The position numbers and the translations under genes are program-made. Positions 4,921 through 38,035 of a DNA stretch of 38,035 nucleotides are shown piece after piece; position 1 is the first letter of the stretch, and every line of letters begins with the position of its first letter. The stretch covers positions 1 through 38,035 of IMG/VR virus record IMGVR_UViG_3300042922_000169. One strand, given 5' to 3'. This DNA comes from a virus. A model generated the notes under the pieces. The model was given only the letters and a program-made list of their open reading frames with translations. It made no database searches and was not told the origin of the DNA.

Positions 4921-5322
4921 TTAATCAATGTTATCGAGGTTAACCGGAATCCACATTTTAGGATTATAGTTAAGCGTATATTTGTATTTAGATACATTGT
5001 TAATGTCCATGTCCTCAACTACATATGTAACGTTGTCACTCAGTCCGATAAAATGCTTTTTATAGGTTCCATATTCATCCTCAACGATAATTTCAAGCTG
5101 ATTATCTGCCATATCTGCCGTTATTGACATCTTCCCGGACATTTGGAACAATACATCACCTTCTAGGCAGTTGATAACCGTGATCTGTCTTACAACATTG
5201 AAATTATCCGCCTGCTGAGACAAATTATAGGAAACCCTATCCGCTTCACTCTCACACCCTGTAAATGTCAAACCAATCATTGCAATTACTAAAATTATTC
5301 CTAATACTCTTTTCATTCTCAT
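4921..5322 (-). CDS. Lipoprotein (beta-rich, unknown function)
   Basis: Signal peptide plus lipobox MRMKRVLGIILVIAMIGLTFTGC. RBS AAGGAGAT. Confidence 0.65.
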   Translation of the reverse strand: MRMKRVLGIILVIAMIGLTFTGCESEADRVSYNLSQQADNFNVVRQITVINCLEGDVLFQMSGKMSITADMADNQLEIIVEDEYGTYKKHFIGLSDNVTYVVEDMDINNVSKYKYTLNYNPKMWIPVNLDNID

Positions 5323-5526: not shown

Positions 5527-6186
5527 CTAACTGGCTTCCAGATATGCCAAGTCTTTAAACATATCCAATCTCTTTTTACAATCTTGATAAATATCCTTAT
5601 AATGCTTGTCCGTAATTATCCCGGCATCAACTACATGCAGTATGATATTTTCGATTAAGGACAGATTATTAAGCTGTGCAATTGTGGCAGCATCCCGATC
5701 CGTGATCCCGGCTACTTTATTAGCTAGTTTAGAATAGGTCATATAAAGCTTATCCGCATGTGTACTGCCTTGACCCTGTGCGTAGTCTACTAACTTCTGG
5801 ATCGTGTCCGTTTCGGCTTTTCTGGTTAGCTTGCCTTGGTATCTGGTGGCTATCCATTCATTGGACTGGCGTTCCAGAATGAAACGGCGCATTTCGTAGA
5901 ATTGACGAACAAGTTCTTTTTTGAATTCTATAACCCTCGGAGAGTTACCAAGGAATGTCATCAATAGCGTTGCTTGTGGTTCGTTTAAGTAATAGCATTT
6001 TGCATGCCTCGTACCCGCTTCATTAGTGGATTTCAAGTAGTCTGACAATTCGCCGAATGATTCAAAATACGCTGTGTATTTATTTAATAACTTTGCGACC
6101 GCTTGGTGTGAATTACCTGTCATTTCTGAAATTATCCAACTATCAGTAAAAACATCATTTCCTTTTAGAGAAACTAAGTTGTTCAA
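5527..6186 (-). CDS. Rha-family phage regulatory protein
   Basis: 219 aa. N-terminal VFTDSWIISEMTGNSHQAVAKLLNKY...FESFGEL matches the Phage_pRha pattern. The C-terminal part resembles the ORF6C/antirepressor-like region. Confidence 0.75.
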   Translation of the reverse strand: MNNLVSLKGNDVFTDSWIISEMTGNSHQAVAKLLNKYTAYFESFGELSDYLKSTNEAGTRHAKCYYLNEPQATLLMTFLGNSPRVIEFKKELVRQFYEMRRFILERQSNEWIATRYQGKLTRKAETDTIQKLVDYAQGQGSTHADKLYMTYSKLANKVAGITDRDAATIAQLNNLSLIENIILHVVDAGIITDKHYKDIYQDCKKRLDMFKDLAYLEAS

Positions 6187-7400: not shown

Positions 7401-8843
7401 ATGAAAACAGCCGCATTATATATTCGGGTGAGTACAGAGGATCAAACTGAATATTCCCCAGATGCTCAAAAACGACTTTTGACTGATTATGCGAATAAGA
7501 ATGGGATGAGTGTTTCGAATGAATTTATATTTATTGATGATGGAATATCAGGTAAGAAAGCAGATAAACGCCCACAATTTCAACACATGATAGGTCTTGC
7601 TAAATCAAAAGAGCACCCAATAGATGTGATTCTTGTATGGAAATATTCCAGATTTGCGCGGAATCAAGAAGAGAGTATTGTATATAAATCGTTACTAAAG
7701 AAAAATAACGTTGATGTGATAAGTATAACCGAACCATTAATTGATGGTCCATTCGGTACATTGATTGAGCGTATCATAGAATGGATGGACGAATATTATT
7801 CTATCCGCTTATCTGAAGAAGTTAAAAAGGGCATGACAGAAAAGGCAATGCGTGGAGAATATCAAACCTATGCTCCATTTGGGTATACTATGAAAAAAGG
7901 GGAAGGTCAACTAAAAATAGACGAAAACAAATCCGATACAGTTAGGCTTATTTTTGATATGTATCTAAATCAGTCTAAATCCTTTTTTTATATAGCCAGG
8001 CATCTGAATGACATGGGATTAAAATCCAGTAGAGGAAATAAGTTCGAGCATCGTACAGTCAAGTATATAATACAGAATCCAGTGTATAAAGGTTGGGTTA
8101 GGTGGAACCCATCCGGTCAAGTTGATATTAGGTATCAGAAGGATACACGCGAAGATACTATTTTAAAACAAGGGGAACACGAACCAATAATTGATGAATC
8201 TATCTGGGATGCTGCCAATGAAAAGATGGTGAAAGAATATCGTCCTTTAAACTCCAAGCCTAGAGAAGTTATGGTTCATTGGTTAAGTGGGATAATAGTG
8301 TGTAGTAACTGTGGTGGATCTTTAGTTTCAGGAGGTTCAGCGGGTGGGTTTCAATGCACATCTTACTCAAAGGGTAAATGTAAAATATCGCATTATGTAA
8401 GTTATACCAAAATAGAGAAGGCCGTAATCAATGCACTACAAGGAATATCTATAAGTGGGAATTTTGATTACGAAATTATTAACAGTACTACGGTTAATGA
8501 TGATGCAATAATTGAAAATGCGCTATTAAGGCTTGATCAGAAGGCGAAGCGTATGAAGGATGCATATTTAAATGGAGTTGATTCATTGGAAGAATATAAA
8601 GAAAATAAAATTAAATTTGAATTAGAACGACAGGATTTGATTGGCAGAATGTCCGTGAAAGATACTGTCTTAAAATCATCTGACACAGATCAAATAATGA
8701 TTGAAAGAATTAGTACAGCATTATCAATTATAACATCAGATGCTGACAGAGATAAAAAAAGTATAGCTATAAGGAGCATCATACAGAAGATTATATACAA
8801 TAAATCTAATGAAAATATTGATGTTTATTTATATTTGGCATAG
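7401..8843 (+). CDS. int: Large serine recombinase (integrase)
   Basis: 480 aa. Resolvase catalytic N-terminus AALYIRVSTEDQ, recombinase domain, zinc ribbon CSNCGG...C...C, C-terminal coiled coil. Confidence 0.9.
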   Translation: MKTAALYIRVSTEDQTEYSPDAQKRLLTDYANKNGMSVSNEFIFIDDGISGKKADKRPQFQHMIGLAKSKEHPIDVILVWKYSRFARNQEESIVYKSLLKKNNVDVISITEPLIDGPFGTLIERIIEWMDEYYSIRLSEEVKKGMTEKAMRGEYQTYAPFGYTMKKGEGQLKIDENKSDTVRLIFDMYLNQSKSFFYIARHLNDMGLKSSRGNKFEHRTVKYIIQNPVYKGWVRWNPSGQVDIRYQKDTREDTILKQGEHEPIIDESIWDAANEKMVKEYRPLNSKPREVMVHWLSGIIVCSNCGGSLVSGGSAGGFQCTSYSKGKCKISHYVSYTKIEKAVINALQGISISGNFDYEIINSTTVNDDAIIENALLRLDQKAKRMKDAYLNGVDSLEEYKENKIKFELERQDLIGRMSVKDTVLKSSDTDQIMIERISTALSIITSDADRDKKSIAIRSIIQKIIYNKSNENIDVYLYLA

Positions 8844-11140: not shown

Positions 11141-11485
11141 ATGATGAATAATTACATAAATACAACTGATGTATTTGGGAATAATATTATATGCAGTGAG
11201 GATCATTGGAATAATCACGTAGCCGCAGGAAGTCATAAGATAATGTCAAAAAACAAAGATGCTGTGGTTGATACTCTTAGATCTCCTGATGCTGTGTATA
11301 ATTCAAGTGACTATGCGAACAGAAAAGTTTTTTTCAAGAAATCGACGCATTCTTCATATGACTGCAACCGATTTAATACTAAAGTAGTTGTAGGTTATGA
11401 CTCAAATCAATCAGGTGAAATCATTACAGCATTTCCTTCACCTGGAGAAAAAGGAGGAATAGGCGATGTCATATACCCAGAATAA
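11141..11485 (+). CDS. Toxin-like small protein (possible barnase/RelE-fold nuclease, uncertain)
   Basis: 114 aa. ICSEDHWNNHVAAGSHKIM....DTLRSPDAVYNS....RKVFFKK. The downstream gene, a DUF2283-type partner, overlaps it by 20 nt. The assignment rests mainly on context. Confidence 0.3.
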   Translation: MMNNYINTTDVFGNNIICSEDHWNNHVAAGSHKIMSKNKDAVVDTLRSPDAVYNSSDYANRKVFFKKSTHSSYDCNRFNTKVVVGYDSNQSGEIITAFPSPGEKGGIGDVIYPE

Positions 11486-11723
11486 AGTCAGTTATGACAA
11501 GAAATATGATGTACTCTATTTCAGTTTAGAGGATAATGATAATTCTTATGGCGATGAAATAGAGGATAATATTGTTTTCATGAAAGATATAGATACAAAT
11601 GAAATTACCGGAATTACTGTAATGGGCTTCTTGAGATATTTTTCTAATACACCCGAACGGCTTGACTCACTAAAACCATTTTTGGATGTATCGGAAATAG
11701 CAAATAAGTGCGCCAATATGTAA
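11466..11723 (+). CDS. DUF2283-like protein (antitoxin-type partner)
   Basis: 85 aa. SYDKKYDVLYFSLEDNDNSYGDEIEDNIVFMKDIDTNEITGITVMGF matches the DUF2283 pattern. RBS GGAGGA-N7. Confidence 0.6.
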   Translation: MSYTQNKVSYDKKYDVLYFSLEDNDNSYGDEIEDNIVFMKDIDTNEITGITVMGFLRYFSNTPERLDSLKPFLDVSEIANKCANM

Positions 11724-11791: not shown

Positions 11792-12451
11792 TCAAGCTAA
11801 TTTATTAAGCAGCGCTTTTAAAGCCGTATAACCCAGAGAACCACTTGTTGCATCACTGTACTTTCTGCTTGCTCTAAATGCATTAACAGCCGCTATGGTC
11901 CCGTTACCCCACAATCCATCTGCTTTAATCCCTAATGCTGTCTGGATTGCCTTTGTAACGTATGTAGTGGTATGCTTGGAATCAAATACCGCCGCAAAAT
12001 CTCCCTTTACCTGGAAGTGAGGACTATCCGGTGTAGTCTTCCAGTTAGCTCCCGGCTCAAATCCATATTTCTGCATCGTCTTGATGATAATCTGAGTCTG
12101 AGGGTCTTTGGTATTATAAATAGCAGTCATTTTACCCTTTACCAGTCTTTGGGGAACCACGTCCACGGCTTTACGTTGGATATGTATGCTATCAAGGGTC
12201 CATGTCTTTTTACCTACCGATGTATTACAGTATGCTTTTGCAAATACATTACCAATTCCCTTGGTTGTACACTCAGCTATCGTGCGTCCCTGGCAGTATA
12301 AATAATGCTGCCTGTCTAAAGGTCTGTATGTCTCTGTAACAAGAGGATTAACGCCTTGCTTGCGGATATCTGCTAATGCCAGCTCCAACATGATCCGAAC
12401 TAATATATTTAATTCTGTTGCATCTCTGCAGCTTACCGTAACATTGCTCAT
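11792..12451 (-). CDS. Endolysin: M15 (VanY-like) peptidase with C-terminal peptidoglycan-binding domain
   Basis: 219 aa. TYRPLDRQ, SIHIQRKAVDV and DSPHFQ are metal ligand motifs. C-terminal IQTALGIKADGLWGNGTIAAVNAF is PG_binding_1-like. Confidence 0.8.
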   Translation of the reverse strand: MSNVTVSCRDATELNILVRIMLELALADIRKQGVNPLVTETYRPLDRQHYLYCQGRTIAECTTKGIGNVFAKAYCNTSVGKKTWTLDSIHIQRKAVDVVPQRLVKGKMTAIYNTKDPQTQIIIKTMQKYGFEPGANWKTTPDSPHFQVKGDFAAVFDSKHTTTYVTKAIQTALGIKADGLWGNGTIAAVNAFRASRKYSDATSGSLGYTALKALLNKLA

Positions 12452-12879
12452 TTAGTTTCCTCCTCCGCCTTACTCTTCAGCACATCAATGGCATTCTTTA
12501 ATATCTTAGGATAATCAATCCCCATTAGACCACCATTCTCCAAGATAGATACTGCTTCGTTCGCCGCGAAACCTATAACCACCGTATTACGCACAATCTC
12601 AGTACCAGTAAGCTTATCTATCTGAGTAGCTACAAGGACATATAGTAAGATCATACCTTTTTTACATAGCCCTTTGAATCCGGCTCTGCTTTCTAAGGCT
12701 CCGTTCTCAGTCTTGGTTGACTTCTTAAACACCACGGCTACAACAAGCCCCGTTATGTAATCAACCGCCATGAAGATAATTAAAGTCTGCAATGCTAAGT
12801 CCCACCCCCCAAGCGCCTGCGCTATGATGCTTCCTATTAGTCCGAATACTCCGAATAATGCATTATGTTTCATAATCAA
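12448..12879 (-). CDS. Holin (phage_holin_4 / LL-H family)
   Basis: 143 aa with 3-4 TM segments. DYITGLVVA....ESRAGFKGLCKKGMILL...ANEAVSILEN is typical. Its ATGA overlaps the endolysin start. Confidence 0.85.
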   Translation of the reverse strand: MIMKHNALFGVFGLIGSIIAQALGGWDLALQTLIIFMAVDYITGLVVAVVFKKSTKTENGALESRAGFKGLCKKGMILLYVLVATQIDKLTGTEIVRNTVVIGFAANEAVSILENGGLMGIDYPKILKNAIDVLKSKAEEETK

Positions 12880-13247: not shown

Positions 13248-13277
13248 TTGTTGATATTTGGTGTTTTATGGTATAAT
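13248..13277 (+). promoter_or_regulatory. Promoter of the plus-strand zinc-ribbon moron
   Basis: TTGTTG (13248-13253), 18 nt, TGgTATAAT extended -10 (13272-13277). Confidence 0.5.
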
Positions 13278-13326
13278 CTCCTTACAGGCCGTGAGAGCTG
13301 AGTACAAAAGAAAGGAGAATATACCT

Positions 13327-13530
13327 ATGGCTCGTTATTTGAAATGCCCTTATTGCGGTAAAGAAAAGCTCGGGGAATTATCCGCAAGCGAAGGTAAATC
13401 GTGGGGTTTGGTTGAATTCGACCCAAACAAGGATCAAACGGTTTTAGAAAGAACAATGCCTGTCGATGTATTCGCTTGTGAGGATTGCCACTCTATACTG
13501 CTCAAAGGTATTGATATTGAAAAAATCTAA
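13327..13530 (+). CDS. Small zinc-ribbon protein (67 aa), counter-oriented moron
   Basis: Preferred start is MARYLKCPYCGKEK, with RBS AAAGGAGAA. CPYC...CEDC. The track ORF starts earlier, at 13258. Confidence 0.55.
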   Translation: MARYLKCPYCGKEKLGELSASEGKSWGLVEFDPNKDQTVLERTMPVDVFACEDCHSILLKGIDIEKI

Positions 13531-13679
13531 TTTGCGATTGCGGAAGTTTTGCTTTTGAGTTTAGCAACTCCATCATCAGTATTAAGCACTGTGCCTGCAG
13601 CAATTCTTTTTTCTAAAGCTTCGATTCTTTCCCTATAAGGGTCTTTGCACTCTATCGTGCATCCTTCTATTACTTTCAT
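13527..13679 (-). CDS. Small hypothetical protein (50 aa)
   Basis: MKVIEGCTIECKDPYRERIEALEKRIAAGTVLNTDDGVAKLKSKTSAIAN. RBS AAAGGAG-N7. Its stop overlaps the stop of 13327..13530. Confidence 0.4.
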   Translation of the reverse strand: MKVIEGCTIECKDPYRERIEALEKRIAAGTVLNTDDGVAKLKSKTSAIAN

Positions 13680-13736
13680 GTAAAATCTCCTTTCAAGACA
13701 TAAAAATAAGCCCTCTCTGAGGACTCTGTTAATTAG

Positions 13737-14054
13737 GTTATTGATAATTTAGCTGTATCTGGTGCTGGTGCTACTCCAGCATCTGGATTAAATGGTACGC
13801 GAAACTGGATATACAAGAAGTGTGGATTTTGTTGCATTGACTTGGTTTTATCCGGGTCTATAACAAGCGGTATGATTGTTGCAGCTATACCGGCTGGATA
13901 CAGACCCACTCCCGGGGCTGCCTTAAAAGCTATAAACACAGGAAATGGTAGCTTTGTTTACTGTACTGTTTCAAGTAATGGAGATGTAATTGTTTATCCT
14001 GGTAGTACTATATCAAACATAATAATATCTGATACTTATTATGCGGTATCATAA
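13737..14054 (+). other. Silent inverted cassette encoding an alternative tail-fibre C-terminal domain (no start codon context of its own)
   Basis: Open 105-codon frame VIDNLAVSGAGATPASGLNGTRNWIYKKCGFCCIDLVLSGSITSGMIVAAIPAGYRPTPG...YYAVS. There is no ATG or RBS. It begins at the 12-bp repeat TGATAATTTAGC (13742-13753), whose inverted copy lies in the fibre gene (14347-14358). Confidence 0.55.
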
Positions 14055-14597
14055 AGTAGTGATATAAGCTCCTGTAATGGTATATATTTGTTCCGATGTT
14101 AATGCGCTCAAAGTTGATATGAATCCATCATTTGTCACGTGCATGTTATATGCCGTGCCATTAGTCTCATTCCTGCCCTCAAGCCCACTTACATTTACAA
14201 GAGCATGTGGCAATCCGCTGAATAGCAGATATAATGCGCCTACATCAGATGTTAATACTATGCGAATTGATACTATTACTAATCGCCCGGATTTTATATA
14301 TCCACCGGTTACAGTGCCATATATTGACGCAACTGACTTCACCAATGCTAAATTATCATTTAGTGTTTGTAAGCTCTGTCCCATGGAGTAGGCCAGTGCA
14401 GCACCGCATATCTTTTCAACATTGTTAGTCTGGACATTTACTATATCAGCCTTGGCAGCCTTTACACTGTATAAATCCTCTATGGCATTGTCGCAATCAT
14501 CTATACCCTTTTCCATATGATTAAGATTAGTTGCATTGATCGGTGTGGCAGTGGACGGGCTGTCTTGCCAATTAAGCTTTATGTATCTCTTTGCCAT
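14049..14597 (-). CDS. Distal tail fibre / receptor-binding protein
   Basis: 182 aa. N-terminal KLNWQDSPSTATPINATNLNHMEKGIDD is a widespread Firmicute-phage fibre N-terminus. RBS GAGGTGA. Confidence 0.65.
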   Translation of the reverse strand: MAKRYIKLNWQDSPSTATPINATNLNHMEKGIDDCDNAIEDLYSVKAAKADIVNVQTNNVEKICGAALAYSMGQSLQTLNDNLALVKSVASIYGTVTGGYIKSGRLVIVSIRIVLTSDVGALYLLFSGLPHALVNVSGLEGRNETNGTAYNMHVTNDGFISTLSALTSEQIYTITGAYITTL

Positions 14598-15878: not shown

Positions 15879-18275
15879 TTATAATGATGCGATAATAAAG
15901 CACAATAATTCCTCGTATCTAATACCAAGTCTTGTAACCGGGAGCGTTCCTTCATCCTCTGCCGTATAAGGTATTTCGTCTTCCCTTACTGCTTTTCCGT
16001 CTTTTTCGTACCATGTGTCAGAGCAGAATAAAGCGTAATTATCTACAACTAGCCCTTCTTCCTCGAAGATCTTTCTGACTTCTTGCGCATATACTCCAGT
16101 GTGCTTTCTTGCCTCATCACCTTTAGCCTTGACAGCATCGTTAAACTTAAAAGTCTTTATGCTGTTTTTTATTTTTAAAGCAACCCTTCTTTCTGCGTCC
16201 GATAAGCTCATGCCTTGCTGCTTTAATGTTTCGTCAGAGGTTGAAATTACTGGGGTTGCTGCAAATACCTGAGTCCATAAGTATGATGGTGATCCGCAAG
16301 ATATTACATTAGAACCAGAGTCACTATGAGGCCTAAAGTTATTACCAAATGCCGTAACCTTTGCTACTCCATCATATAAAGAGGTATGTGTATGATACGC
16401 CGGGGAAGCATACGAGCCAATGTTGGCGGAATTTATTGGTGTTCCTCCGTTTAAAAGGGTGCAATATAGATACCCATCCACCGAAAAAGAACCCTTTGTA
16501 ACTCCACCCACAGTCATATTAAGCCCAGTATGAGCTAATGCCACGTTATAGCTTCCGGCGGTATCCTGCAGCACGATATTGCCTGGGGAATGATTAGAAG
16601 ATATTGTACCGCTATATTGATAAAGTAAGCTGGTTGTAATTGCACCATTGGATATAGTTGTGGTATGAGTAGTTCCTACTTGGTTGAACGATGTTGCATT
16701 AATCGCCCCACCGTTTATCGTAGGACTGTTAATCGTATTTCCACTCAGTGTTCCTGTAAAAGTACCATCGACCCCTGACAGTGTCCCCATAAATACTCCG
16801 CCGGCAGCATTTAAATCCCCAGAAAAAGAACCAGAAGCAGCAACTAATTCACCGCTAAACTTTCCATTTACCGCTTCCATGGAACCGTCTGCTAGTATCT
16901 TGAAATTATTATTAGCCGTAATCAAACCTTCAAGTGAAATATTATCAGCTTTAAGAATAATACTGGTTAAATCAGTATCAGGATCACCATTAAGATCAAT
17001 ATAACCAATATTACCAGCGCTATTCACCTTAAGCACTACCTGGCCTGCAAGTACGGCTATTTCACCGGATAAATTAGTTTCTAGGTCAGATACGGTTACG
17101 CTGACTTCATCTACGGTCTTAACTATTCTTGCTGTTCTTCCTTTAAGTTGCTGTATCTCATAATTTAATCCGAAATTCTGTATCTGCTCTTCTTCACCCT
17201 CGGCCACAAATACGTCTCTTAGTCCTTGTATACCGGTTAAAGTCCTTTGTAGTACAAATCCTTGCACCGGATCATCCTGGGAGAATTCCACCATGTCTCC
17301 AACTTCGATATAAGGCAATCCAACATTATTACTTGAATACGGTCTATAAGGTCTCTTGGCGATATACCCAAAAATATTTGTAGCTATGGTCTCAAGCTCT
17401 GCAGCAGACTTTCCATATACCAAAAAGTTATCCTGAATAATATAACTATTGGAACCGGTTCCCACGATAGCCCCAATATCATCATCGTCCTGCCGGATAA
17501 TAAGTTTAGTGATTTCCTTGACTGTGTATTCCTCGAACTTGATTGATTCCATCATGCTTACCGTGATTGTCTCGTCTACAAGGCTTGGTGTCACATATGT
17601 GGTGTCTGTCTCTGATCTAGGATACTCATGCCCGGGGTAAAATGTTCCGGGGTATAAGCCGTAGGCAGGCTTAAGGATAATATGTGTAAATTTTCCCTCC
17701 CGATTGATGTGGCCAAAGCAACCGTTTATTTCCTCACAGGCTTCTATTACGGTTCGCCCTGCAAGCTGTGACACGCTAATTGTCTTTTCTACGGTCATTG
17801 AGTCATTAGGCAATGGAAGTTTGCTTGTGTCTTGTTCAAGCCCTACGTGAGCCAGAAATGAGGCTCTGAACGCTGCTAGCGTCAAAGGAAAGGTCAATCC
17901 ATTATACCAGTCACCGACATCTACCTCAATTTTTTTCATTCGGTCATAAGCAACTATATCCTTCATTGTCATATCGTCGCTCGTGGTGCAGCTATAAACT
18001 TTATATATTCCAAGCGGTACTGTATAGCCTCCTATGATGTGCTTGTATTCAAATTCATAACCAGTTAAATCATTAGGAATTAATTCTATGCTGATCTCAC
18101 ATTGAGACGCTATACAGGAGCCATATACAATGTTATCGCTGTTAACTATGCTTTCTATTAATTTAGGGCTTTCTTCTATAATCGAATCTGATAAAGTTAG
18201 CCCTAATGACGGGAAATACATAACAGGAGTTATAACTTCACCCTGCTTATAAAGATTCTTTATTGCTTCTTCCAT
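15879..18275 (-). CDS. Tail-associated (Tal-position) minor structural protein / tail spike with C-terminal S74 intramolecular chaperone domain
   Basis: 798 aa directly after the Dit-position gene. Central Gly/Ser/Thr-rich repeats. C-terminal TSDETLK...HTGVYAQEVRKIFEEEGL matches the endosialidase chaperone (peptidase S74) motif. Confidence 0.75.
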   Translation of the reverse strand: MEEAIKNLYKQGEVITPVMYFPSLGLTLSDSIIEESPKLIESIVNSDNIVYGSCIASQCEISIELIPNDLTGYEFEYKHIIGGYTVPLGIYKVYSCTTSDDMTMKDIVAYDRMKKIEVDVGDWYNGLTFPLTLAAFRASFLAHVGLEQDTSKLPLPNDSMTVEKTISVSQLAGRTVIEACEEINGCFGHINREGKFTHIILKPAYGLYPGTFYPGHEYPRSETDTTYVTPSLVDETITVSMMESIKFEEYTVKEITKLIIRQDDDDIGAIVGTGSNSYIIQDNFLVYGKSAAELETIATNIFGYIAKRPYRPYSSNNVGLPYIEVGDMVEFSQDDPVQGFVLQRTLTGIQGLRDVFVAEGEEEQIQNFGLNYEIQQLKGRTARIVKTVDEVSVTVSDLETNLSGEIAVLAGQVVLKVNSAGNIGYIDLNGDPDTDLTSIILKADNISLEGLITANNNFKILADGSMEAVNGKFSGELVAASGSFSGDLNAAGGVFMGTLSGVDGTFTGTLSGNTINSPTINGGAINATSFNQVGTTHTTTISNGAITTSLLYQYSGTISSNHSPGNIVLQDTAGSYNVALAHTGLNMTVGGVTKGSFSVDGYLYCTLLNGGTPINSANIGSYASPAYHTHTSLYDGVAKVTAFGNNFRPHSDSGSNVISCGSPSYLWTQVFAATPVISTSDETLKQQGMSLSDAERRVALKIKNSIKTFKFNDAVKAKGDEARKHTGVYAQEVRKIFEEEGLVVDNYALFCSDTWYEKDGKAVREDEIPYTAEDEGTLPVTRLGIRYEELLCFIIASL

Positions 18276-18287
18276 TGCTTCACCGCC

Positions 18288-18677
18288 TTATAAACTTATC
18301 AAAACAATATCGATAGGCTGATAAATGATTTCTATGTCTCTGACCTTGTAGTGCTTAAATTCAAAATCATTGGTTTTGAAAGTGTTAGAAGTATAATATG
18401 TACCGGTTTTCTGATCCCAAAACTCAATAGTCAATCCACTACCCGAATGGAAATATCCAATAAACGCATCAACCGCAGCCTTTTTCATTGCATTGGTTGA
18501 GAACTTTATTTCAGAAGTGGTATGTGGTGAATAAATCTCGTGTTGCTTACCATCTGCCGTGTAATAACTCCTTATTAATCTCCTTACTATGGGCTTGCAT
18601 GAATATGTTTTCATGTTGATGTATCTATTGGGCAACTCTATATCATTAATTTTTAACAAATGACCATCAAACGCCAT
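18288..18677 (-). CDS. Putative distal tail protein (Dit position, short)
   Basis: 129 aa between the tape measure and Tal. The assignment is by synteny only. Confidence 0.4.
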   Translation of the reverse strand: MAFDGHLLKINDIELPNRYINMKTYSCKPIVRRLIRSYYTADGKQHEIYSPHTTSEIKFSTNAMKKAAVDAFIGYFHSGSGLTIEFWDQKTGTYYTSNTFKTNDFEFKHYKVRDIEIIYQPIDIVLISL

Positions 18678-18681
18678 TGTA

Positions 18682-21099
18682 TCACCCTATCGGGAATGGA
18701 GCAGTTCCCGTCCTTTGATAATATTTCTTTGCCTCAAGTCTAATGAATTCGAACAATCCACCATTCTTTTCTGTTGCTGTAATTTCAACCCCGAAAGTTC
18801 CTATCAATGCACTAAGTATATCTTGTGATCCGTTAATAGGTGCTCCGCTGTTCTTTGATGACATATCGAACGATGATTCTATGTCAAAATCAGTAGGTAT
18901 GCTTGCATTGATATCCTTTGCCACGCTGTCCATCTCATCTACAAAACCCTCGCCAAGTCCTTGCGCTAGATACTTACCTACTTCATCTCGAAATACTGTT
19001 GACGGGGAGTGGATTCCAAAAAAGTCCTTAATACCGTTGAGTACTGAACCGCCAAAGCCTTTTATCTTGCTAATAATCCAATCAGTTGCGTTGTTTATAC
19101 CATTCCATAAGCCTTTTACTAAGTTAAGTCCTATATCAGCTAATCCAGTTAAGCCACTTGATAAACCGGATATAATATTACTACCAAATTCTTTTACATT
19201 CTTCTGTATCCATGTCACAAGACCATTCATACCGAGCCATATACCCTTAACTGCATTTATTCCTATAGTTTTTAAATTATCAGGAAGCTCGCTTAGTCCA
19301 TCTACGATTTTTGTCAACACATTCTTTGCTGCTTCTATAGCCTTATCTTTCAAACTGTTTGCAAAGTCTTGAATTTTCTGCACGCCATTGTCGAAATGTT
19401 CTTTCAACTTCCCTGGTAATTCCCCTATACTCTTTCCGAGGTCTACAAAGAAGGTTTTGACCTTCTCAACCAATTCATTTACCTTAGTTCTAAACTCTTC
19501 GTTATTATCATAAATGAGTTTAAAAGCGCCGGAGATAGGATTTACTAGCATCAATAGCAACGCCTGCCAGTTATCTTTTACGAAACTGATCACACCTGAT
19601 AAAAATCCTTTCACTTTCTCAATTGCGCCGGATACTACTTCTGTTATATTGCCCCATATTTCTTTAACTCCATTTCTTAAATCTTCATTAGTAGCAAAAA
19701 GCGTCCCGATAACTGCAACCAATCCCACAATAGCTGTTATTATTATCCCGATTGGATTGGCATTCATTACGACATTTAACGCTGCTTGCGCTATAGCCGC
19801 ACCTTCATTTGCTAGCTGAAAAGCTTTTATAGCTGTTACGGCACCTTGAATCATAGTAACAACATTCCATGCGACAAATCCGGCAGCTATTCCGCTAATT
19901 ACGGCTATCACTTTATCTCCGTTATCTACAAGCCATCCTATTAATTCAGCTACTTTTGATGCTATATTACTAACAGTTTCTGCAATGGCAGGAGCGCTTT
20001 CCTGCAATTTTTCTATTAAAGGTTCAATGGAAGGCATTAATTCGCTTAATATAGACCCGGCTATTCCTGTAACAGACGTTTTTAATTGCCCCATAGTATC
20101 ACCGAAATCATCGAGTGCAGATACTGTATCATTGCTCATAACTGCCCCGGTGTCTTTTGCCTGCTGTGCCAGTTTCTCAAGTTCGTCTGATCCAGCTTTT
20201 ATAAGTGGATTTAAGTCTGCCGCAGACTTGCCGAAAATATCTTGTGCAATAGCCGTTCGTTCAGTTTCATTTGTGACCTTTCCTAATGCATCGATAGCCT
20301 CATTAAACACATCGTTACTGTCACGCAAGTTACCTGCGCTATCAGTTACTTTTATACCTAACTTTTCAAATGCTTCATATGCAGTTCCGCTTTCTCCAGA
20401 TGCACTTGACATATTGTTAATTAATTTCGAAAAGCTACCAGTGATTGTATCAATGCTTGTTCCAACCGTATCTCCAACATATGCAAGCTCTTGTATTTTT
20501 TCCGCACTCAACCCTGTCTGATCTGCTGTCTGTTGTATGCTGTCAGCTGCTTCTAATGCTTCTGATGCAAGAGATGATATAGATCCAACAAGGTTCTTTA
20601 TTCCACCTATTATGGCCTCTGAAATCAGGTTTGCCTTAATCATATCGCCCATGGAAAACGCTTTTTCACCTGCTTCATCAGCTTTGTTTCCGAATTCCTC
20701 AATCTCTTTTCCGAGGTCATCTGCCGGATTAGTTGCCTTTTCCATTGCATCAGTGTTGTTCTTGAGTTCTCTTTCCATGGTATTTAACTCAGCAGTAGCC
20801 TGGTTAACTGAACGCTGCCACCCCTGTGTTACCTTGTCATTTTCTCCGTATTTATCAGATGCAGAAGAAAGTCCTTTTTGCAGTTCTGCAAGCTTTTTGT
20901 TTTGTTCATCAATCTGCTTGTTTAATACTTCATTCCTTGATGATAATGCCTCGACACTGTTATCGCCTTTATCAAACTGGCTAGCAACTACCTTCATTTC
21001 AGTGCCAAGAGTTTTTAAATTTTCGTTAATTCCATTGATTGCGCTACGAAATTCAGCTTCGCCATCAATCCCTATCTTTGGGCCGATATCATATGCCAC
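18682..21099 (-). CDS. Tape measure protein
   Basis: 805 aa, helical and Ala/Gly/Ile-rich with central hydrophobic segments. It sits downstream of the G/G-T chaperones. Confidence 0.9.
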   Translation of the reverse strand: MAYDIGPKIGIDGEAEFRSAINGINENLKTLGTEMKVVASQFDKGDNSVEALSSRNEVLNKQIDEQNKKLAELQKGLSSASDKYGENDKVTQGWQRSVNQATAELNTMERELKNNTDAMEKATNPADDLGKEIEEFGNKADEAGEKAFSMGDMIKANLISEAIIGGIKNLVGSISSLASEALEAADSIQQTADQTGLSAEKIQELAYVGDTVGTSIDTITGSFSKLINNMSSASGESGTAYEAFEKLGIKVTDSAGNLRDSNDVFNEAIDALGKVTNETERTAIAQDIFGKSAADLNPLIKAGSDELEKLAQQAKDTGAVMSNDTVSALDDFGDTMGQLKTSVTGIAGSILSELMPSIEPLIEKLQESAPAIAETVSNIASKVAELIGWLVDNGDKVIAVISGIAAGFVAWNVVTMIQGAVTAIKAFQLANEGAAIAQAALNVVMNANPIGIIITAIVGLVAVIGTLFATNEDLRNGVKEIWGNITEVVSGAIEKVKGFLSGVISFVKDNWQALLLMLVNPISGAFKLIYDNNEEFRTKVNELVEKVKTFFVDLGKSIGELPGKLKEHFDNGVQKIQDFANSLKDKAIEAAKNVLTKIVDGLSELPDNLKTIGINAVKGIWLGMNGLVTWIQKNVKEFGSNIISGLSSGLTGLADIGLNLVKGLWNGINNATDWIISKIKGFGGSVLNGIKDFFGIHSPSTVFRDEVGKYLAQGLGEGFVDEMDSVAKDINASIPTDFDIESSFDMSSKNSGAPINGSQDILSALIGTFGVEITATEKNGGLFEFIRLEAKKYYQRTGTAPFPIG

Positions 21100-24198: not shown

Positions 24199-25680
24199 TT
24201 AAGACTTGGTTACTGTGATCTTGTATGTCTCAGTCTCGGTTCCGCTGGTAACATTGATTGTTACAACATTTGCACCGTTTACCCATGTTGCTGCAGCTCC
24301 GTTTGCAACCGGTGTGCTACCGTTAAGAATTTCGATTTCAGCATCTCCGTCTTTTGCAACAGCAGTAATTGTATTTGTGGTGTTGGTTGTTGCTGCTGTA
24401 TAGATAAATACCGACTTATTGAATCCTGGTGACAATGTTAAGCTACCGATAGCCAAGCTTGACAATCTAGCATCATAGGTACCCAGTACACTGATTGATT
24501 CATTAGCTACATAAACCTGTTGTACATACGGCTGCAGATTGGTAATATCAAGTAACGCGAAAGAGTTGTTATCTTTCGGTTGTCCGTGTCCGTAGAACTT
24601 TGTCAAATAAATCCTTTCATCCTCAAGGAAATGATACTCATCTGAGAACTCTATTTTCCCGGACTTACCTGTTCCAGCTGCCATGATATATCTATTTCCT
24701 ATACCAATAATAGCTTCGTTTTCTGCTATTCTGGTTGACTGAATAACAGTTGTAGGGAACGGGAATACATCATATGCAAATGTTCCGTCTGTTTTTCTTG
24801 GTGTGGTTGCCGGCATTATCTTGGTCAGGTAATCCTTGGGGTTAACTACCAGAATTACTCCTGTAACCACTCTGGTGTGTCCATTTTCTGTCTCTGCAAG
24901 GGTTGCAAGGAGATTTCCATACGATGTTGGATCGAGTGAGTTTAAAACTACCTTTGTCTTATCTGGGTAACCCGTGGTTGGGTTTACGGAACCGGCTAAA
25001 TTTTTTCTCATTCCGATAGGTTCATGCAGATTAGCTGTCTGGCCTTTTCCGTTCAGAATTCCATCTTCCAATCCAAGATAAAGTGATTCTGATAAAATAG
25101 CTCTAACGTATCTGTCAAGCCAAGCAGGCCCCAAATCCAGCATTGCTTTGCACACAGGAAGAAACGCTGATAATTTATTCTGCTGCAAATCAATTTTTCT
25201 AAATCCAGAAGTTAGCTGTTTTACAATCTCTGCACATAATGGCGACCATGTTGCAAGTTCATCTGTATTAGCGTTTAGCAGCCATTCTGTAACAGCTCCT
25301 GCGTTTTGGAAGTCAATTGCATCCAACAAAGGGTGACTAGTTGTTAAATCATTAAACACATCATCAATGACAGTCTTAGGCAGAACCACATCCAAATCGG
25401 TAAGTGCCTGTTTCGGATTAGGCGATTTCATCGCGGTAATAACAGCCTGGTAATACTTTGTTTCATCGGAAGTAAGCTGTCTTACACCTCTTTGGGCGAG
25501 CACATTCACATCCGTTGTCTGCACTGCCTGTTCGTATTCTAAGACAACCGCATCTTGAATTGACATTGCTAAATCATTAAACGCCTGTGAATATGCCTCT
25601 GTATTGCCATCTGCAATAGCTTGACTCATTCTCTGTAAAATTGTATTTCTTTCCTGCTGTACTAAATCTTTATTTCTCAT
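24199..25680 (-). CDS. Major capsid protein (HK97 fold) with C-terminal cadherin-like/Ig-like domain
   Basis: 493 aa after the ClpP-type protease. The C-terminal ~88 aa contains LSSLAIGSLTLSPGFNKSVFIYTAA...YKITVTKS. Confidence 0.85.
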   Translation of the reverse strand: MRNKDLVQQERNTILQRMSQAIADGNTEAYSQAFNDLAMSIQDAVVLEYEQAVQTTDVNVLAQRGVRQLTSDETKYYQAVITAMKSPNPKQALTDLDVVLPKTVIDDVFNDLTTSHPLLDAIDFQNAGAVTEWLLNANTDELATWSPLCAEIVKQLTSGFRKIDLQQNKLSAFLPVCKAMLDLGPAWLDRYVRAILSESLYLGLEDGILNGKGQTANLHEPIGMRKNLAGSVNPTTGYPDKTKVVLNSLDPTSYGNLLATLAETENGHTRVVTGVILVVNPKDYLTKIMPATTPRKTDGTFAYDVFPFPTTVIQSTRIAENEAIIGIGNRYIMAAGTGKSGKIEFSDEYHFLEDERIYLTKFYGHGQPKDNNSFALLDITNLQPYVQQVYVANESISVLGTYDARLSSLAIGSLTLSPGFNKSVFIYTAATTNTTNTITAVAKDGDAEIEILNGSTPVANGAAATWVNGANVVTINVTSGTETETYKITVTKS

Positions 25681-25707
25681 ATTTTCAATCCTTTCTTTAC
25701 ATAAAAA

Positions 25708-26505
25708 TTAGCAGGTCTTAAGTCCTGCCAAAAAGTTTTTAAGATTATTTTGTTTTGGTGGTTCTTGCGGTTCAGCCTGCGGCTCCTTTGGTTCTGACTC
25801 TTCTTTTACAAATTGTCTAAGCTGTGCAGCCACCGCCTTATTATAACTTAATTTTTGTTCTAATGTACGGTTTGCCTTTTGCAGTAATTTTTGTGCATTA
25901 TCCATGTCGGCGTCTTGCTCCGCATATTCATCGGCAAGGCCGTATTTAATACAATCTTCTGCGGTGAGCCATGTTTCAGCATCGAGCAATTGCACAAGTT
26001 CATCTTCGGTTATTTTGCCAGAAGCTTTTTGAAGATAGGCCTGCCTATTTCCTTTGTTGATTACATCCAAATCATCAGCCGCTTTTCTTAACTCCGCTCC
26101 ATTACCCATTGCAACAGTCCACGCATTATGTATCATCATCATTGCGTTTCTTGGCATAACAACCTTATCACCTGCCATTGCGATCGTAGCCGCAACAGAA
26201 CAAGCAAAACCATCCACATGTACTATTTTCTGCGCCGGATGCCTTCTTAACTGATTATAGATCGCGGTACCTTCAAACACGCTGCCACCATACGAATTAA
26301 TAAAAATATTAATCTTCATAGCGTTAGGATATTTGGCAAGTTCATTTCTGAAATGATTTGCCGAGGTTTCACTCTCTATAATCTCGTCTGTCCACCAGTC
26401 GTAACTATCACTTTCCACATCTCCATAAATATACATTTCCAATGTGTCAGGAGCTGCCGCCTGTTTCAGTTCCCATATCCTTTTCACTGCTTCCACCCCT
26501 TTCAA
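25708..26505 (-). CDS. ClpP-like (S14) prohead protease
   Basis: INSYGGSVFEGTAIYNQL, GFACSVAATIAMAG and MMMIHNAW are ClpP-type motifs. The real start may be GTG at 26487 (RBS AAGGGGTGGA). Confidence 0.85.
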   Translation of the reverse strand: MKGVEAVKRIWELKQAAAPDTLEMYIYGDVESDSYDWWTDEIIESETSANHFRNELAKYPNAMKINIFINSYGGSVFEGTAIYNQLRRHPAQKIVHVDGFACSVAATIAMAGDKVVMPRNAMMMIHNAWTVAMGNGAELRKAADDLDVINKGNRQAYLQKASGKITEDELVQLLDAETWLTAEDCIKYGLADEYAEQDADMDNAQKLLQKANRTLEQKLSYNKAVAAQLRQFVKEESEPKEPQAEPQEPPKQNNLKNFLAGLKTC

Positions 26506-27658
26506 GTGATTTTAATAATTCTTCAACCGTTGCATAGTTCTTTGTCATAAAGAACTGGTTCGCCCAATCTTCATTAATTGGCTCATCACCCACCGTTTTC
26601 CTTATGTCATTTATAGTAAAGCATCCAGAAGATATCAACTTATCTATGGATGTTGCAACGCTTAATAAATCGATGTGTTTAATTACCTTGGTGTCAATTT
26701 GCACCTTAGTTCCTTTTAGGAATTCTGCTTGCCCAATTCTCTTACGGTTAATTTCCTCCTGCAGCATGTCGCACAGTGGATCGATGCAAAATGTCAATGT
26801 ATAGTCTGTAGCACTTGCAACGTCCTGCGTATCCCCTTTAGTTAAAGAAGGATGCACGTGAAATCCTCTTGCTGTAAAGTCGAAAATATCATCTATTAAG
26901 GCTCGTATATCCCGAGTACTTTCACTTGCATAGGTTTTTGATCCAATATCCGAATAGGATTGTCCTTTACCAAGCGGTAATACTGCATTCCCTGATTCCA
27001 TAAACTTCTTAAATTTTTCATTTATTAATGCATCAAATGCTTCCCTCTCTGGAGTGCCTGCAACTGGTAGTGTGTCATAATTGAATACGCCTTTTGTTCC
27101 TCTGGATTTCTGATAGGCTTGCATACTGTATGTAATTAACTTTGCATAACTTCCATACAACGCATTGTTAACCTTGCGCATATCAGCCTGTGATAATTCC
27201 CAATAAAGCACCTCAGATTGTTTGAATGATTTATTAAATGTAAAATCACCAACTGTAACTTGTGTAAATACATCATCATATAGTGCGTACTTTTTTCTGT
27301 CAAAGCTATCTGCAATTAACAACTGACCATTATGTTCAACAATAAGACATTCATTTTCCCCATAAAGAGTTGCTATCCATTTATGTATGAAGCCACTGGA
27401 ATTTTGGTTCAAGTTGGGTGATACGTTCCATGTGTAATACTCTGATCCCTTAACTTCTTTGCCGCGTATATAAGTTTTAAATTCACACTTACTTACCGCA
27501 TTTGCTATTAGGTTCACGGTACTCCAAAACGCCATTTCCCTAATATGTATTTCAGACACAATTTCATCCAGATACATATTTAATTCACTTCCACTTAACG
27601 GAACTGAACCACCGCTAAATTTACTTGATAGCCAGCTTATTAATCCCAAATTTATCAC
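26447..27658 (-). CDS. Portal protein (HK97-type)
   Basis: 403 aa between TerL and the protease. Confidence 0.85.
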   Translation of the reverse strand: MINLGLISWLSSKFSGGSVPLSGSELNMYLDEIVSEIHIREMAFWSTVNLIANAVSKCEFKTYIRGKEVKGSEYYTWNVSPNLNQNSSGFIHKWIATLYGENECLIVEHNGQLLIADSFDRKKYALYDDVFTQVTVGDFTFNKSFKQSEVLYWELSQADMRKVNNALYGSYAKLITYSMQAYQKSRGTKGVFNYDTLPVAGTPEREAFDALINEKFKKFMESGNAVLPLGKGQSYSDIGSKTYASESTRDIRALIDDIFDFTARGFHVHPSLTKGDTQDVASATDYTLTFCIDPLCDMLQEEINRKRIGQAEFLKGTKVQIDTKVIKHIDLLSVATSIDKLISSGCFTINDIRKTVGDEPINEDWANQFFMTKNYATVEELLKSLERGGSSEKDMGTETGGSS

Positions 27659-29900: not shown

Positions 29901-30251
29901 TTACCACCTCTCCTCTGTTAATGGCTTCTCTTTCTTCTCTGGTTGTCTATATCCATGTAGTTCCTCATGACAGTTATGGCATACTGCTATAAGGTTTCGC
30001 CTTATCTCTCCTTTGAATGTGTATGTCTTGCTTAGTGCATACCTTGGATGCTTGCGTACATACTGTACATGATGCACATGATTGGCTTTAGTATATAGCC
30101 CTTTGCTTTTACATATCTGGCATTCATACTTAGACTCTACTAATACTTCTTTCCTTAACGCCCTCCACTCAGGAGATACATAGAAGTCATGCAGCCTATC
30201 TTCACCTATTAACTTAGTTATCCAATTACTTACCTGATCTTCACTCATCAT
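29901..30251 (-). CDS. HNH endonuclease (packaging-associated)
   Basis: 116 aa. CQIC....HHVQYV....NLIAVCHNCHEELH. It sits upstream of terS as in HK97-like cos phages. Confidence 0.85.
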   Translation of the reverse strand: MMSEDQVSNWITKLIGEDRLHDFYVSPEWRALRKEVLVESKYECQICKSKGLYTKANHVHHVQYVRKHPRYALSKTYTFKGEIRRNLIAVCHNCHEELHGYRQPEKKEKPLTEERW

Positions 30252-32943: not shown

Positions 32944-33840
32944 TTAGCTAATTAATTCTAAGTCTAATTCCATCTGGTCAGGATCTTCGTTCATCCACCA
33001 CTGGAATACTTCCTCACCGGATTTCCACTCGGTTTCCAGTCCTCTACGAAGCCTTTCTTTAATCATCCGGTCAAAAGCATGGATATAAAGGGTTTGGTAT
33101 TTAGGGAATACGGCAAATTCAAAATATCTCTTCTTATTCGCCAATGGACACCCGATACAACCAACTCTATCAAATCCCATGCAGTATAATGGATTGCATT
33201 CGAGCTTTTCAGAATGGATGTAATCCCAAATATCTGTATTTGTCCATTCAATGATTGGGTTACACACCGATTTAGCGCGAAGCTCACACTTTTCAAAGAA
33301 TCTTCTGTTGGTGTCATTGTCATTGGTTAATATGATTTTGCTCTGAGGATCATCGTTATCTGAAAGCTTAATCTTATTTTTCTTTGTACTCCCTATGATC
33401 TCCATGCCCCCCTTAGTTGATCTTTGAGTACTTTCATCCCAACGAACCCCAGTTGCTATCATCCGTCCGTCTCCGGCTCCTTCTTTAAGCACCTGACAGC
33501 AATATCTTGCCTTTCTAGTTGGAGGCATTAATTTTAGTGGTATGAGTGTCCACATTGAAATTGGTTCGCCTTGATATCTAGGTTTTTCTATAGTACACTT
33601 GATTCCCTTAAGCTCCAGATCATAAAACTTTTTCTTTATGTATCTGACTGTTTCAGGAGCGTCAGCGGTTGTATGGCTATTCTGTACTTCGAACGGGATA
33701 CCGCTTCTTATCACCAATTCAAGCTGCACATCACTGTCTTTCCCACCGCTATATGTAACTAGAAGAGGCTGTCCATAATATCTTAACGACATTTCACTAG
33801 CCATTCTCAGCCGTTCAAATGATTTATGTTCTAAATCCAA
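32944..33840 (-). CDS. PAPS reductase-family protein (IbrA/DndC-like adenine-nucleotide alpha-hydrolase)
   Basis: 298 aa. PP-loop LLVTYSGGKDSDV, ..RWDES, C-terminal Cys cluster CNPLYCMGFDRVGCIGCPLA. Confidence 0.75.
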   Translation of the reverse strand: MDLEHKSFERLRMASEMSLRYYGQPLLVTYSGGKDSDVQLELVIRSGIPFEVQNSHTTADAPETVRYIKKKFYDLELKGIKCTIEKPRYQGEPISMWTLIPLKLMPPTRKARYCCQVLKEGAGDGRMIATGVRWDESTQRSTKGGMEIIGSTKKNKIKLSDNDDPQSKIILTNDNDTNRRFFEKCELRAKSVCNPIIEWTNTDIWDYIHSEKLECNPLYCMGFDRVGCIGCPLANKKRYFEFAVFPKYQTLYIHAFDRMIKERLRRGLETEWKSGEEVFQWWMNEDPDQMELDLELIS

Positions 33841-37424: not shown

Positions 37425-38035
37425 CTAAAGATTCTTGTTTAATAGCTTCTTTTCCATCTCGGCATAATCCTGAGCGGTATATGTTCGCTGTGGGAAATCA
37501 TGCTGCTTATTTATTGGTTTTGGTTGCTGTTGTGGCTTATTCTCTTGCTTGAGAGGAAATAAACCTTTCCAACCGCTTACTATAGATTGATTAATGATAG
37601 CTATTTGGGTCGATATATCCGGTGATAACTTAGGCAGCTGCTTAATCATTAAGTCAATAGCCTTATCCGTCATAGGAGCTTTCATGGATTTACTTTTTCT
37701 GAACTCTATGAAATCTAAAATAGCTTGATTTAATAACAGATCATCAACGTAATTTTTTATATTATCGTTAGATAATATATTGTTATCATTATTCTCATTA
37801 TTGTTTGTGCTTTTTGGTGTTTCCTCGGTGTTTCCTTTGCGTTTCTTTGGTGTTTCCTTGGTGTTTCTTGAATTCTGGAAATCGCTATATTTTACAATGG
37901 TTATAGCTGTTTCCTTGGTGTTACTATTTTTTTCTATCATGTGTTCCTTTTCGAGAACATTCAAAAAATCAAAAACTTTCTTCCGTGACCAGCCCCAACG
38001 ATCAGCTAATTTCTTTATGCTTGTGATGCGAGACC
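37425..38035 (-). CDS. Replisome organizer (DnaD-like), C-terminal two thirds. The N-terminus runs off the window end and is completed by 287..1.
   Basis: C-terminal DnaD-like domain LLNQAILDFIEFRKSKSMKAPMTDKAIDLMIKQL...IINQSIVSGWKGLFP. Low-complexity Asn/Lys/Thr linker. Confidence 0.75.
   Translation of the reverse strand, partial: SRITSIKKLADRWGWSRKKVFDFLNVLEKEHMIEKNSNTKETAITIVKYSDFQNSRNTKETPKKRKGNTEETPKSTNNNENNDNNILSNDNIKNYVDDLLLNQAILDFIEFRKSKSMKAPMTDKAIDLMIKQLPKLSPDISTQIAIINQSIVSGWKGLFPLKQENKPQQQPKPINKQHDFPQRTYTAQDYAEMEKKLLNKNL
37816..37870. repeat. Five tandem 11-bp iterons inside the replisome-organizer gene (candidate origin)
   Basis: GGTGTTTCCTC GGTGTTTCCTT TGCGTTTCTTT GGTGTTTCCTT GGTGTTTCTTG. 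A sixth copy, GCTGTTTCCTT, is at 37906-37916. An AT-rich tract at 37741-37810 is adjacent. Confidence 0.55.
37909..38035. repeat. Terminal direct repeat, right copy, identical to 1..127
   Basis: Same 127 nt as the window start. Confidence 0.95.

Follow-up and report, generated by a model that had tools for sequence, protein, structure and literature searches.

A candidate inversion switch without a dedicated invertase at the receptor-binding protein locus of phage genome IMGVR_UViG_3300042922_000169

Why would a phage carry, directly behind the gene for a tail-tip protein and on the opposite strand, an open frame that has no start codon and translates into what looks like a second tip? The question is raised by the IMG/VR virus record IMGVR_UViG_3300042922_000169 (positions 1 to 38,035; the whole of this 38,035-nucleotide stretch is called the window here), in which a minus-strand gene at 14049..14597, assigned below to the receptor-binding proteins (RBPs), meets such a frame on the plus strand. 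The answer that we regard as probable, though well short of certain, is that the locus is a recombinase-orphan inversion switch, in which a stored RBP head is swapped in by a flip of the DNA and host specificity is changed reversibly. The features on which the argument turns are the following.

13699..13726, minus strand: terminator-like hairpin and T-run of the RBP transcription unit, just beyond the outer repeat arm; the hairpin at 13726..13708 scores as a minus-strand terminator.
13737..14054, plus strand: silent, start-less head cassette (105 codons and a stop) that meets the expressed head tail-to-tail; recognized from homologues, AlphaFold2 (AF2), Foldseek and PHROG.
13742..13753, plus strand: outer repeat arm, at the 5' end of the silent cassette, encoding D-N-L-A in the same phase as the inner arm.
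14049..14345, minus strand: expressed head (tip), RBP residues 85-182 plus stop, taken from the list of open reading frames (ORFs); protein P0009 carries the same tip type.
14346..14597, minus strand: constant part of the RBP, residues 1-84 (MAKRY...QTLNDNLA), delimited by N-terminal identity to relatives and by PHROG 2012; outside the putative invertible segment.
14347..14358, minus strand: inner repeat arm, inside the family junction site CTAAATGATAATTTAG (14348-14363, minus), which encodes L-N-D-N-L.
7401..8843, plus strand: large serine recombinase of 480 amino acids, with the Pfam domains Resolvase, Recombinase and Zn_ribbon_recom and a match to PHROG 95 (integrase).

The geometry of the locus can be read directly in the sequence, and here the original prediction was accurate in each particular. 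The 12-mer TGATAATTTAGC is present in exactly two copies in the window, at 13742-13753 on the plus strand and at 14347-14358 on the minus strand, and in both arms it is read in identical phase as x-GAT-AAT-TTA-GC, that is D-N-L-A, which in the inner arm makes up residues 81-84 of the expressed protein. The plus-strand frame at 13737-14054 consists of 105 open codons and a stop, with a TAG at 13734-13736 directly before it, and its earliest ATG and TTG lie at 13872 and 13842. It shares six nucleotides (TCATAA) with the 182-codon minus-strand gene in a stop-to-stop overlap, such that each stop is antisense to the final sense codon of the other frame. The arithmetic of the flip also holds, in that residues 1-84 would be fused to a 99-amino-acid tip replacing the present tip of 98 amino acids. 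Taken by itself the 12-bp repeat is not significant, at least two matches with at most one mismatch being found in 6 of 100 shuffles, and the chance probability of a 105-codon open frame is about 0.002 at the local base composition. The significance of the repeat rests on the family-wide junction site and on the recurrence of the layout in at least 17 other loci, both described below; judged from these sequence comparisons, repeat and layout are beyond chance and the finding is real. No terminator was found between the two heads, and that of the RBP unit lies beyond the stored head and would therefore serve either orientation. The window ends in an exact 127-bp repeat (1-127 = 37909-38035) and has a G+C content of 38%; from this terminal overlap it represents a circularly closed, complete phage genome of about 37.9 kb.

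What kind of protein does the expressed gene encode? Its N-terminal part of about 84 residues is 57-88% identical to scores of proteins of 130-190 amino acids whose C-termini are mutually unrelated, and it matches PHROG 2012, a minor tail protein; a profile search of the PDB with this module gave nothing meaningful. Residues 1-84 are probably a baseplate-attachment or stem module. The module boundary coincides with a conserved motif, L-N-(D/N/K)-N-L-(A), and the window repeat sits exactly there, while the expressed tip type is also joined to a shorter N-terminus in P0009. The surrounding genes run from a DUF6711 protein (18288..18677) through a 798-amino-acid tail protein with a Peptidase_S74 domain (15879..18275), an immunoglobulin-like (Ig-like) protein and a 73-amino-acid ORF to the RBP and then to the lysis genes, a holin-sized ORF (12448..12879) and a 219-amino-acid ORF (11792..12451), whose homologous neighbours in relatives are Phage_holin_4_1 and Peptidase_M15_4 proteins. 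With the Dit/Tal baseplate genes preceding it and the lysis cassette following, the gene has the position expected of a siphophage RBP. The label of distal fibre that the gene had first been given is therefore better replaced, in view of the Foldseek matches described next, by that of a TP901-1/PSA-like RBP, and comparative evidence assigns the 182-amino-acid product to this type.

The opposite-strand frame had been taken for a genuine alternative tip, and the structural and family evidence agrees. With an alignment of its homologues, AF2 predicts an all-beta domain at a mean predicted local distance difference test (pLDDT) of 91.5, and Foldseek places this model beside the RBP heads of TP901-1 (ORF49/BppL), Listeria phage PSA (gp15) and p2 (PDB entries 4hep, 2f0c, 6r5w, 2wzp and 1zru), with template modelling (TM) scores of 0.65-0.80 and E-values down to 3e-5. 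A profile search returned a PDB 'receptor-binding protein' at E 0.0015, and the frame matches the C-termini of PHROG minor tail proteins. An exhaustive HMMER search yielded 26 distant homologues, nearly all matched in their C-terminal part; in several of them the domain starts about 10 residues past an N-N-G-L or N-N-N-L motif. The four residues that are invariant in this homologue family (P52, R56, P57 and G82) are all retained. On this evidence the silent frame encodes an intact RBP head domain, with the predicted beta-sandwich of the lactococcal RBP fold. Of the comparison of both tips by structure prediction that was originally suggested, only this half succeeded, since for the expressed RBP, modelled from its single sequence, AF2 reached a pLDDT of 52 and gave no confident model. 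BLASTP detected no similarity between the silent and the expressed tip. This null result is uninformative because paired tips are unrelated throughout the RBP family, and for the same reason the original view that a lack of structural relationship between the tips would speak against a switch is not apt. A prophage protein of Anaerosporobacter faecicola, P0066, combines the same MAKRY N-terminus and an NNNL junction with a head of the window's silent-head family, and it is a natural example of the product predicted from flipping.

Is the layout peculiar to the window? Relatives of the N-terminal module were drawn from GTDB genomes, IMG/VR, metagenomes and individual contigs, and 17 distinct loci besides the window have an open opposite-strand cassette placed tail-to-tail directly past the RBP stop (L003, L013, L014, L029, L036, L039, L046, L048, L049, L057, L059, L062, L066, L150, L151, L152 and L153 in our numbering). 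The cassettes span 72-109 codons if the count starts at the junction motif, that of L066 being cut by the contig end, and an inverted junction site heads the cassette in every locus whose contig reaches the cassette 5' end. The common order is constant N-terminus, site, expressed head, inverted silent head, inverted site and terminator hairpin. Exact repeats across the loci measure 11-18 bp, or in some about 24-25 bp with 1-3 mismatches, and the family site has the consensus (A/C)GCTAAAT(A/G)A(T/G)AATTTAG(C), a near-palindrome of the form AAAT-NNNN-ATTT (6-4-6 or 8-4-8). Among the silent copies the similarity runs about 11 bp further into the non-coding outer flank (GTTAnTGAGCT), and in most of them there are stops 2-12 codons upstream of the junction motif; a short GC hairpin equivalent to that of the window follows just beyond the silent site in 12 related loci. 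L013 belongs to the isolate A. faecicola KCTC 15857 (GCA_012070565.1, contig JAAQRO010000030.1), and its two sites lie at 5138-5150 and 5732-5744. Two stacked silent cassettes are present in L049, the only locus with two, whereas L001, the nearest relative of the window's RBP, is without any cassette. In L035 and L061 the inverted site lies within a full-length convergent fibre gene, and recombination would there exchange the heads of two expressed proteins, not an expressed for a silent one.

L035, 1280-2119, minus strand: convergent fibre gene of 279 amino acids.
L061, 501-2156, minus strand: convergent fibre gene of 551 amino acids with collagen-like G-x-x repeats.

Could the plus-strand frame instead be a small gene in its own right, expressed for example from the TTG at 13842 or the ATG at 13872? 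The source annotation by the Joint Genome Institute (JGI) did call a 60-amino-acid ORF (P0001) from the internal ATG, at 13872-14054 of the window, and an in-frame ATG is found a few codons upstream of the junction motif in L036, L046 and L055 and nine codons upstream in L003. However, a product of 60-70 amino acids would be without beta-strands one to four of what is confidently predicted as one domain, most loci have the upstream stop just described and no start, no promoter-like site was seen upstream on the plus strand, and the frame lies downstream and antisense within the RBP transcription unit. We therefore rejected independent expression, on the truncated domain, the upstream stops and the missing promoter-like site, and consider it very improbable. 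In the same annotation the RBP was begun at Met28 (155 amino acids), and from these two calls it follows that gene callers systematically truncate or miss start-less cassettes.

Do heads actually pass between the silent and the expressed position? The silent head of L036 and the expressed head of L047 are 80% identical in amino acids and 82% in nucleotides on opposite strands, next to upstream sequence that is colinear and 85% identical. The silent head of L013 shares 79% of its amino acids with the expressed head of L066, whose own silent head is 97.8% identical in nucleotides, on the opposite strand, to the expressed head of L150, beside colinear sequence of 91% identity; for the silent head of L150 and the expressed head of L151 the value is 46% of amino acids. 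These comparisons show that heads change place between the silent and the expressed slot in closely related phages. Silent-versus-expressed comparisons gave ratios of nonsynonymous to synonymous divergence (dN/dS) of 0.17 and 0.08, at dS 0.77 and about 1.9, where neutral drift of the silent copies would give about 0.5 or more; silent heads have therefore been under purifying selection. Turnover can be sharp: L066 and L151 are 100% identical across 548 nucleotides up to the site and unrelated beyond it, L150 and L153 are 99.6% identical across 475 nucleotides and likewise unrelated beyond, and one N-terminal subfamily (...QDQVTELNKN) precedes about 15 different heads. Metagenome contigs end at the site in L044 and L032 and about 24 nucleotides past it in L034; the L062 contig, from sample Ga0172378 like L044, starts within the N-terminus. 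Compared with point mutation, head turnover is fast, and it is localized at the junction site.

The switch that we propose would work as follows. The conserved L-N-D-N-L-A junction would join the constant residues 1-84 to an exchangeable C-terminal head, and the stored head, which has neither a start codon nor a ribosome-binding site, would open with the junction sequence in phase and be followed by the operon terminator. Recombination between the two opposed copies of the junction, 12 exact bp long in the window and 11-25 bp long in relatives, would flip a segment of about 617 bp, so that residues 1-84 gain the stored 99-amino-acid tip and the present 98-amino-acid tip is retired; the flipped junction, with the N-terminus joined to the stored head, would read ACAAACACTAAATGATAATTTAGCTGTATCTGGTGC. 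The outcome would be a reversible, bet-hedging switch of host receptor specificity. Real-time inversion in this phage, its rate and its enzyme are what we infer from the layout and its relatives.

Several observations weigh against such a switch. Twenty predicted flipped fusion proteins, representing 10 loci and alternative starts, were all absent from an exact look-up in about 15 billion sequences. Relatives form chains (W/X, X/Y, Y/Z) and include no clean reciprocal pair (X/Y versus Y/X), so that cassette replacement must operate besides any two-state flip. The window was assembled as a single unbranched circle, and one orientation therefore dominated in that sample. Its stored head is without a close relative anywhere searched: tblastn against 50,697 GenBank phages and a scan of IMG/VR gave nothing, and a word-indexed search of 5.8 billion proteins returned only a fragment of the head itself. 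In five loci the inverted site and the hairpin are kept, 1-105 bp past the RBP stop, and the cassette is truncated or missing altogether (sites at L015 5487-5499, L027 690-702, L051 1404-1416, L055 518-530 and L038 702-714); such loci may represent switches that have decayed, units for the exchange of a single cassette, or on/off arrangements. The window copy itself may be frozen or inactive, because its 12-bp repeat is among the shortest of the family and the left half of the consensus is gone from its outer site, which reads TATT against the AAAT of the family. No cassette-linked recombinase was seen in any locus examined, and no adjoining long ORF looks like one. L001, the nearest relative of the window's RBP, is without any cassette.

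Much of this would also be expected if the cassette were an evolutionary leftover of rare illegitimate or homologous exchange at a mosaic boundary, heads being swapped between phages through the homology of N-terminus and junction and the inverted copy never flipping within the lifetime of a lineage. The failed look-ups, the different partner heads of near-identical phages, which indicate replacement and not a flip, the loci holding a site remnant only and the short, degenerate repeat of the window all favour this explanation, and sharp breaks of identity at module junctions are typical of phage mosaicism. However, ordinary module replacement leaves no inverted, start-less, in-phase and stop-free copy between a gene and its terminator, whereas exactly this layout recurs in at least 18 divergent loci, the window included, with cassette sequences that are unrelated, and a frame of 105 codons is open by chance with a probability of only about 0.002 per locus. 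Furthermore, the dN/dS values of 0.08-0.17 argue that silent heads are exposed to selection and must therefore be expressed at some time. A leftover of this kind seems to us unlikely, if still the most serious of the competing explanations. For the claim of a host-range inversion switch, then, the switch geometry and the movement of heads between slots in relatives stand and a flipped copy was not recovered among the 20 look-ups; similarly, of the two orientations that related prophages might have shown, the same heads do occur in silent and in expressed position, with different partners and in no reciprocal pair.

If the inversion switch is real, which enzyme would catalyse it? Pfam and PHROG screens covered the window ORFs except the head and packaging genes (24199..27658) and the 805-amino-acid tail ORF (18682..21099) of the structural module, and, in line with the original statement that a large serine integrase is the only recombinase, the sole site-specific recombinase in the screened ORFs of this circular genome is the 480-amino-acid protein of 7401..8843. 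It lies beside a helix-turn-helix (HTH) repressor-like gene, 5 kb from the cassette, and its domains make it most likely an integrase. The screens also picked out RusA, a PDDEXK exonuclease (DUF3799) and an SMC-like ATPase. The screens revealed no small serine invertase of the Hin/Gin/Cin family, and no match to the Phage_integrase family was found in the screened ORFs or next to cassettes in relatives. A diversity-generating retroelement was considered and rejected, as the screened ORFs include no reverse transcriptase domain and the two tips share no sequence. The element GGTTATTGATAA, which resembles a hix half-site, was likewise discarded because no second half-site is present.

One way out would be a real inversion for which the phage itself supplies the enzyme in cis, its large serine recombinase doubling as integrase and invertase. 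It is, after all, the sole site-specific recombinase found in a complete circular genome, and PHROG also scores its catalytic domain against a 'DNA invertase' family. Large serine integrases are directional and recombine an attP with an attB site, which differ from each other and measure about 40-50 bp, whereas the two sites here are short and alike, and further junction-like sites in the window, including the surroundings of the integrase gene, amount to chance-level matches only. In IMG/VR, many relatives of the recombinase are encoded at the end of a viral contig or close to it, as an integrase at the edge of an integrated prophage would be, and none of the cassette-bearing IMG/VR contigs is among its 80 closest relatives. 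In addition, there is no recombinase within 10 kb downstream of the cassette in A. faecicola, L068 or L069, the prophage ending there in two of these. We think it improbable that the integrase plays this part. The catalyst of the proposed switch is rather taken to act in trans, because the phage encodes no dedicated invertase, and in order of preference we would name an invertase of the host, then short-homology recombination through functions of the phage and, last, the phage integrase.

How does the locus compare with known switches? In the Mu G/Gin, P1 C/Cin, p15B Min and e14 Pin systems the fibre gene keeps its constant 5' part beyond the invertible segment, within which two alternative 3' parts are opposed, giving host-range alternation; switches of this kind are cited in PMC9881135 and PMC6109161. 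In systems of the Mu/P1 type the segment adjoins the gene for a small serine invertase (about 190 amino acids) with an enhancer, the 26-bp crossover sites are embedded in repeats of 34 bp, and chaperone genes (U/U') invert along with the fibre parts; these systems are found in proteobacterial myoviruses. The architecture of the Mu G and P1 C segments, which had been invoked for the window, is matched in geometry only, as it is for p15B Min, with identical phase at both repeat arms; unlike those systems, the window locus includes neither a small serine invertase nor a co-inverting chaperone gene, and in place of a gix- or cix-like site of 26-34 bp it has 12 exact bp within a family site of 16-20 bp. 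The RBP itself resembles TP901-1 BppL (ORF49), p2 ORF18 and PSA gp15 in its similar size (163-180 amino acids in TP901-1 and PSA) and in the host-range beta-sandwich head, on which the predicted silent head superposes, and differs from them in an N-terminal part without sequence similarity. Heads of such proteins are exchangeable, chimeric TP901-1/p2 RBPs having been crystallized (PDB 3d8m and 3da0, from the Foldseek listing). We know of no TP901-1, p2 or PSA phage in which a stored inverted head cassette has been described, and in the limited literature searched we found no description of one for TP901-1/PSA-type RBPs or for Clostridia phages.

The closest parallels come from bifidophages. 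Between two tRNA-Met-integrated prophages, 689b-1 and Bb423phi2, about 500 bp is inverted at an 8-bp repeat; this segment comprises the 3' end of a tail-region gene and a small, dissimilar segment on the opposite strand, has no flanking recombinase, and led the authors to propose a trans-acting invertase, noting that none had been reported in phages (Mavrich et al. 2018; PMC6109161). That orphan locus and ours share a short inverted repeat bounding about 0.5 kb with a gene 3' end and its opposite-strand alternative, and no flanking recombinase. The bifidophage case concerns an actinobacterial host, genes without identifiable function and a comparison of two genomes, whereas here the RBP is identified, the site is conserved and near-palindromic over 16-25 bp and at least 18 Clostridia-associated loci are involved; the likeness drawn here is one of layout. 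The Rin shufflon of Bb423phi1 and other phages uses a tyrosine invertase and 11-bp sites to combine 168 constant with 95-100 variable amino acids into five possible full-length RBP alleles, and its inversion was observed in virion reads (PMC6109161). As in Rin, we find a siphophage RBP with a constant N-terminus (84 amino acids), start-less variable cassettes (98 and 99 amino acids) and short repeats at the junction. Unlike Rin, there is no adjacent tyrosine invertase, there is one silent cassette with two sites (two cassettes in L049), and inversion, which was observed there, is here proposed. In a systematic survey tail-fibre genes were enriched among programmed inversions (PMC9881135).

Some observations were made beside the main line of the analysis. 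In L060 (1222-1824) the reading frame of the RBP does not end with the first head but runs on through another junction motif and another head, the latter being that of L054; this tandem direct arrangement was possibly produced by recombination between directly oriented sites. The L012 contig (5447-5469; Anaerosporobacter mobilis DSM 15930) ends 22 bp past the RBP stop, within the perfect palindrome TAAATAGCTATTTA, and a near-identical motif stands between the two tail-to-tail heads of L150; this could be a third site or a mere assembly break. Between the cassette terminator and the next conserved gene of the window (13258-13679) lie a plus-strand ORF for a Zn-ribbon-like protein of 90 amino acids (CPYC...CEDC) and a minus-strand ORF of 50 amino acids, which are absent in the relatives examined (L001, L014 and L013) and look like an inserted moron. 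By the lysis genes (11141-11723), overlapping plus-strand genes for 114 amino acids (no family match) and 85 amino acids (DUF2283) resemble a toxin-antitoxin or moron pair. Many related prophages encode, immediately past the lysis cassette and on the other strand, a signal-peptide-like protein whose gene may be a moron or serve lysogenic conversion; the copies of L067 (12333-12875, minus) and L068 (13191-14051, minus) are annotated Big_2 (Ig-like), and similar sequences occur in L008 (7565-8296, minus), L011 (8673-9317, minus) and L018 (7905-8618, minus). Elsewhere in the window, the early region encodes a 298-amino-acid protein with a PAPS-reductase domain (32944-33840), a type often linked to phage DNA modification, and an HNH endonuclease gene (29901..30251) adjoins that of the small terminase.

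The window is best read as one member of a sizeable, previously undescribed family of RBP-head cassettes. More tentatively, and with doubts that we would place above our hopes, the family might form a widespread recombinase-orphan system in phages of anaerobic Clostridia with Lachnospiraceae-type hosts, in which a conserved near-palindrome of about 16-25 bp, lying in the codons of the RBP neck (L-N-x-N-L), would be both an intragenomic inversion site and a population-wide exchange point for dozens of unrelated heads among near-identical phages, served by an enzyme that the host supplies in trans or that is of an unrecognized kind. Inversion-based switching of host range is textbook knowledge for Mu and P1, barely documented in Gram-positive siphophages and tentative where an invertase of their own is lacking. 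The isolate lysogen A. faecicola KCTC 15857 makes flipping directly testable, and the conserved junction site with its discrete head cassettes offers a natural modular scaffold for engineered RBP swaps. If the reading is true, a recombinase that acts in trans and couples phase variation of host and phage awaits identification, host-range predictions from RBP sequences would be wrong for about half of this RBP family, and a large group of anaerobic-digester phages and Lachnospiraceae-type prophages would hold second, hidden host specificities, which gene callers overlook or cut short.

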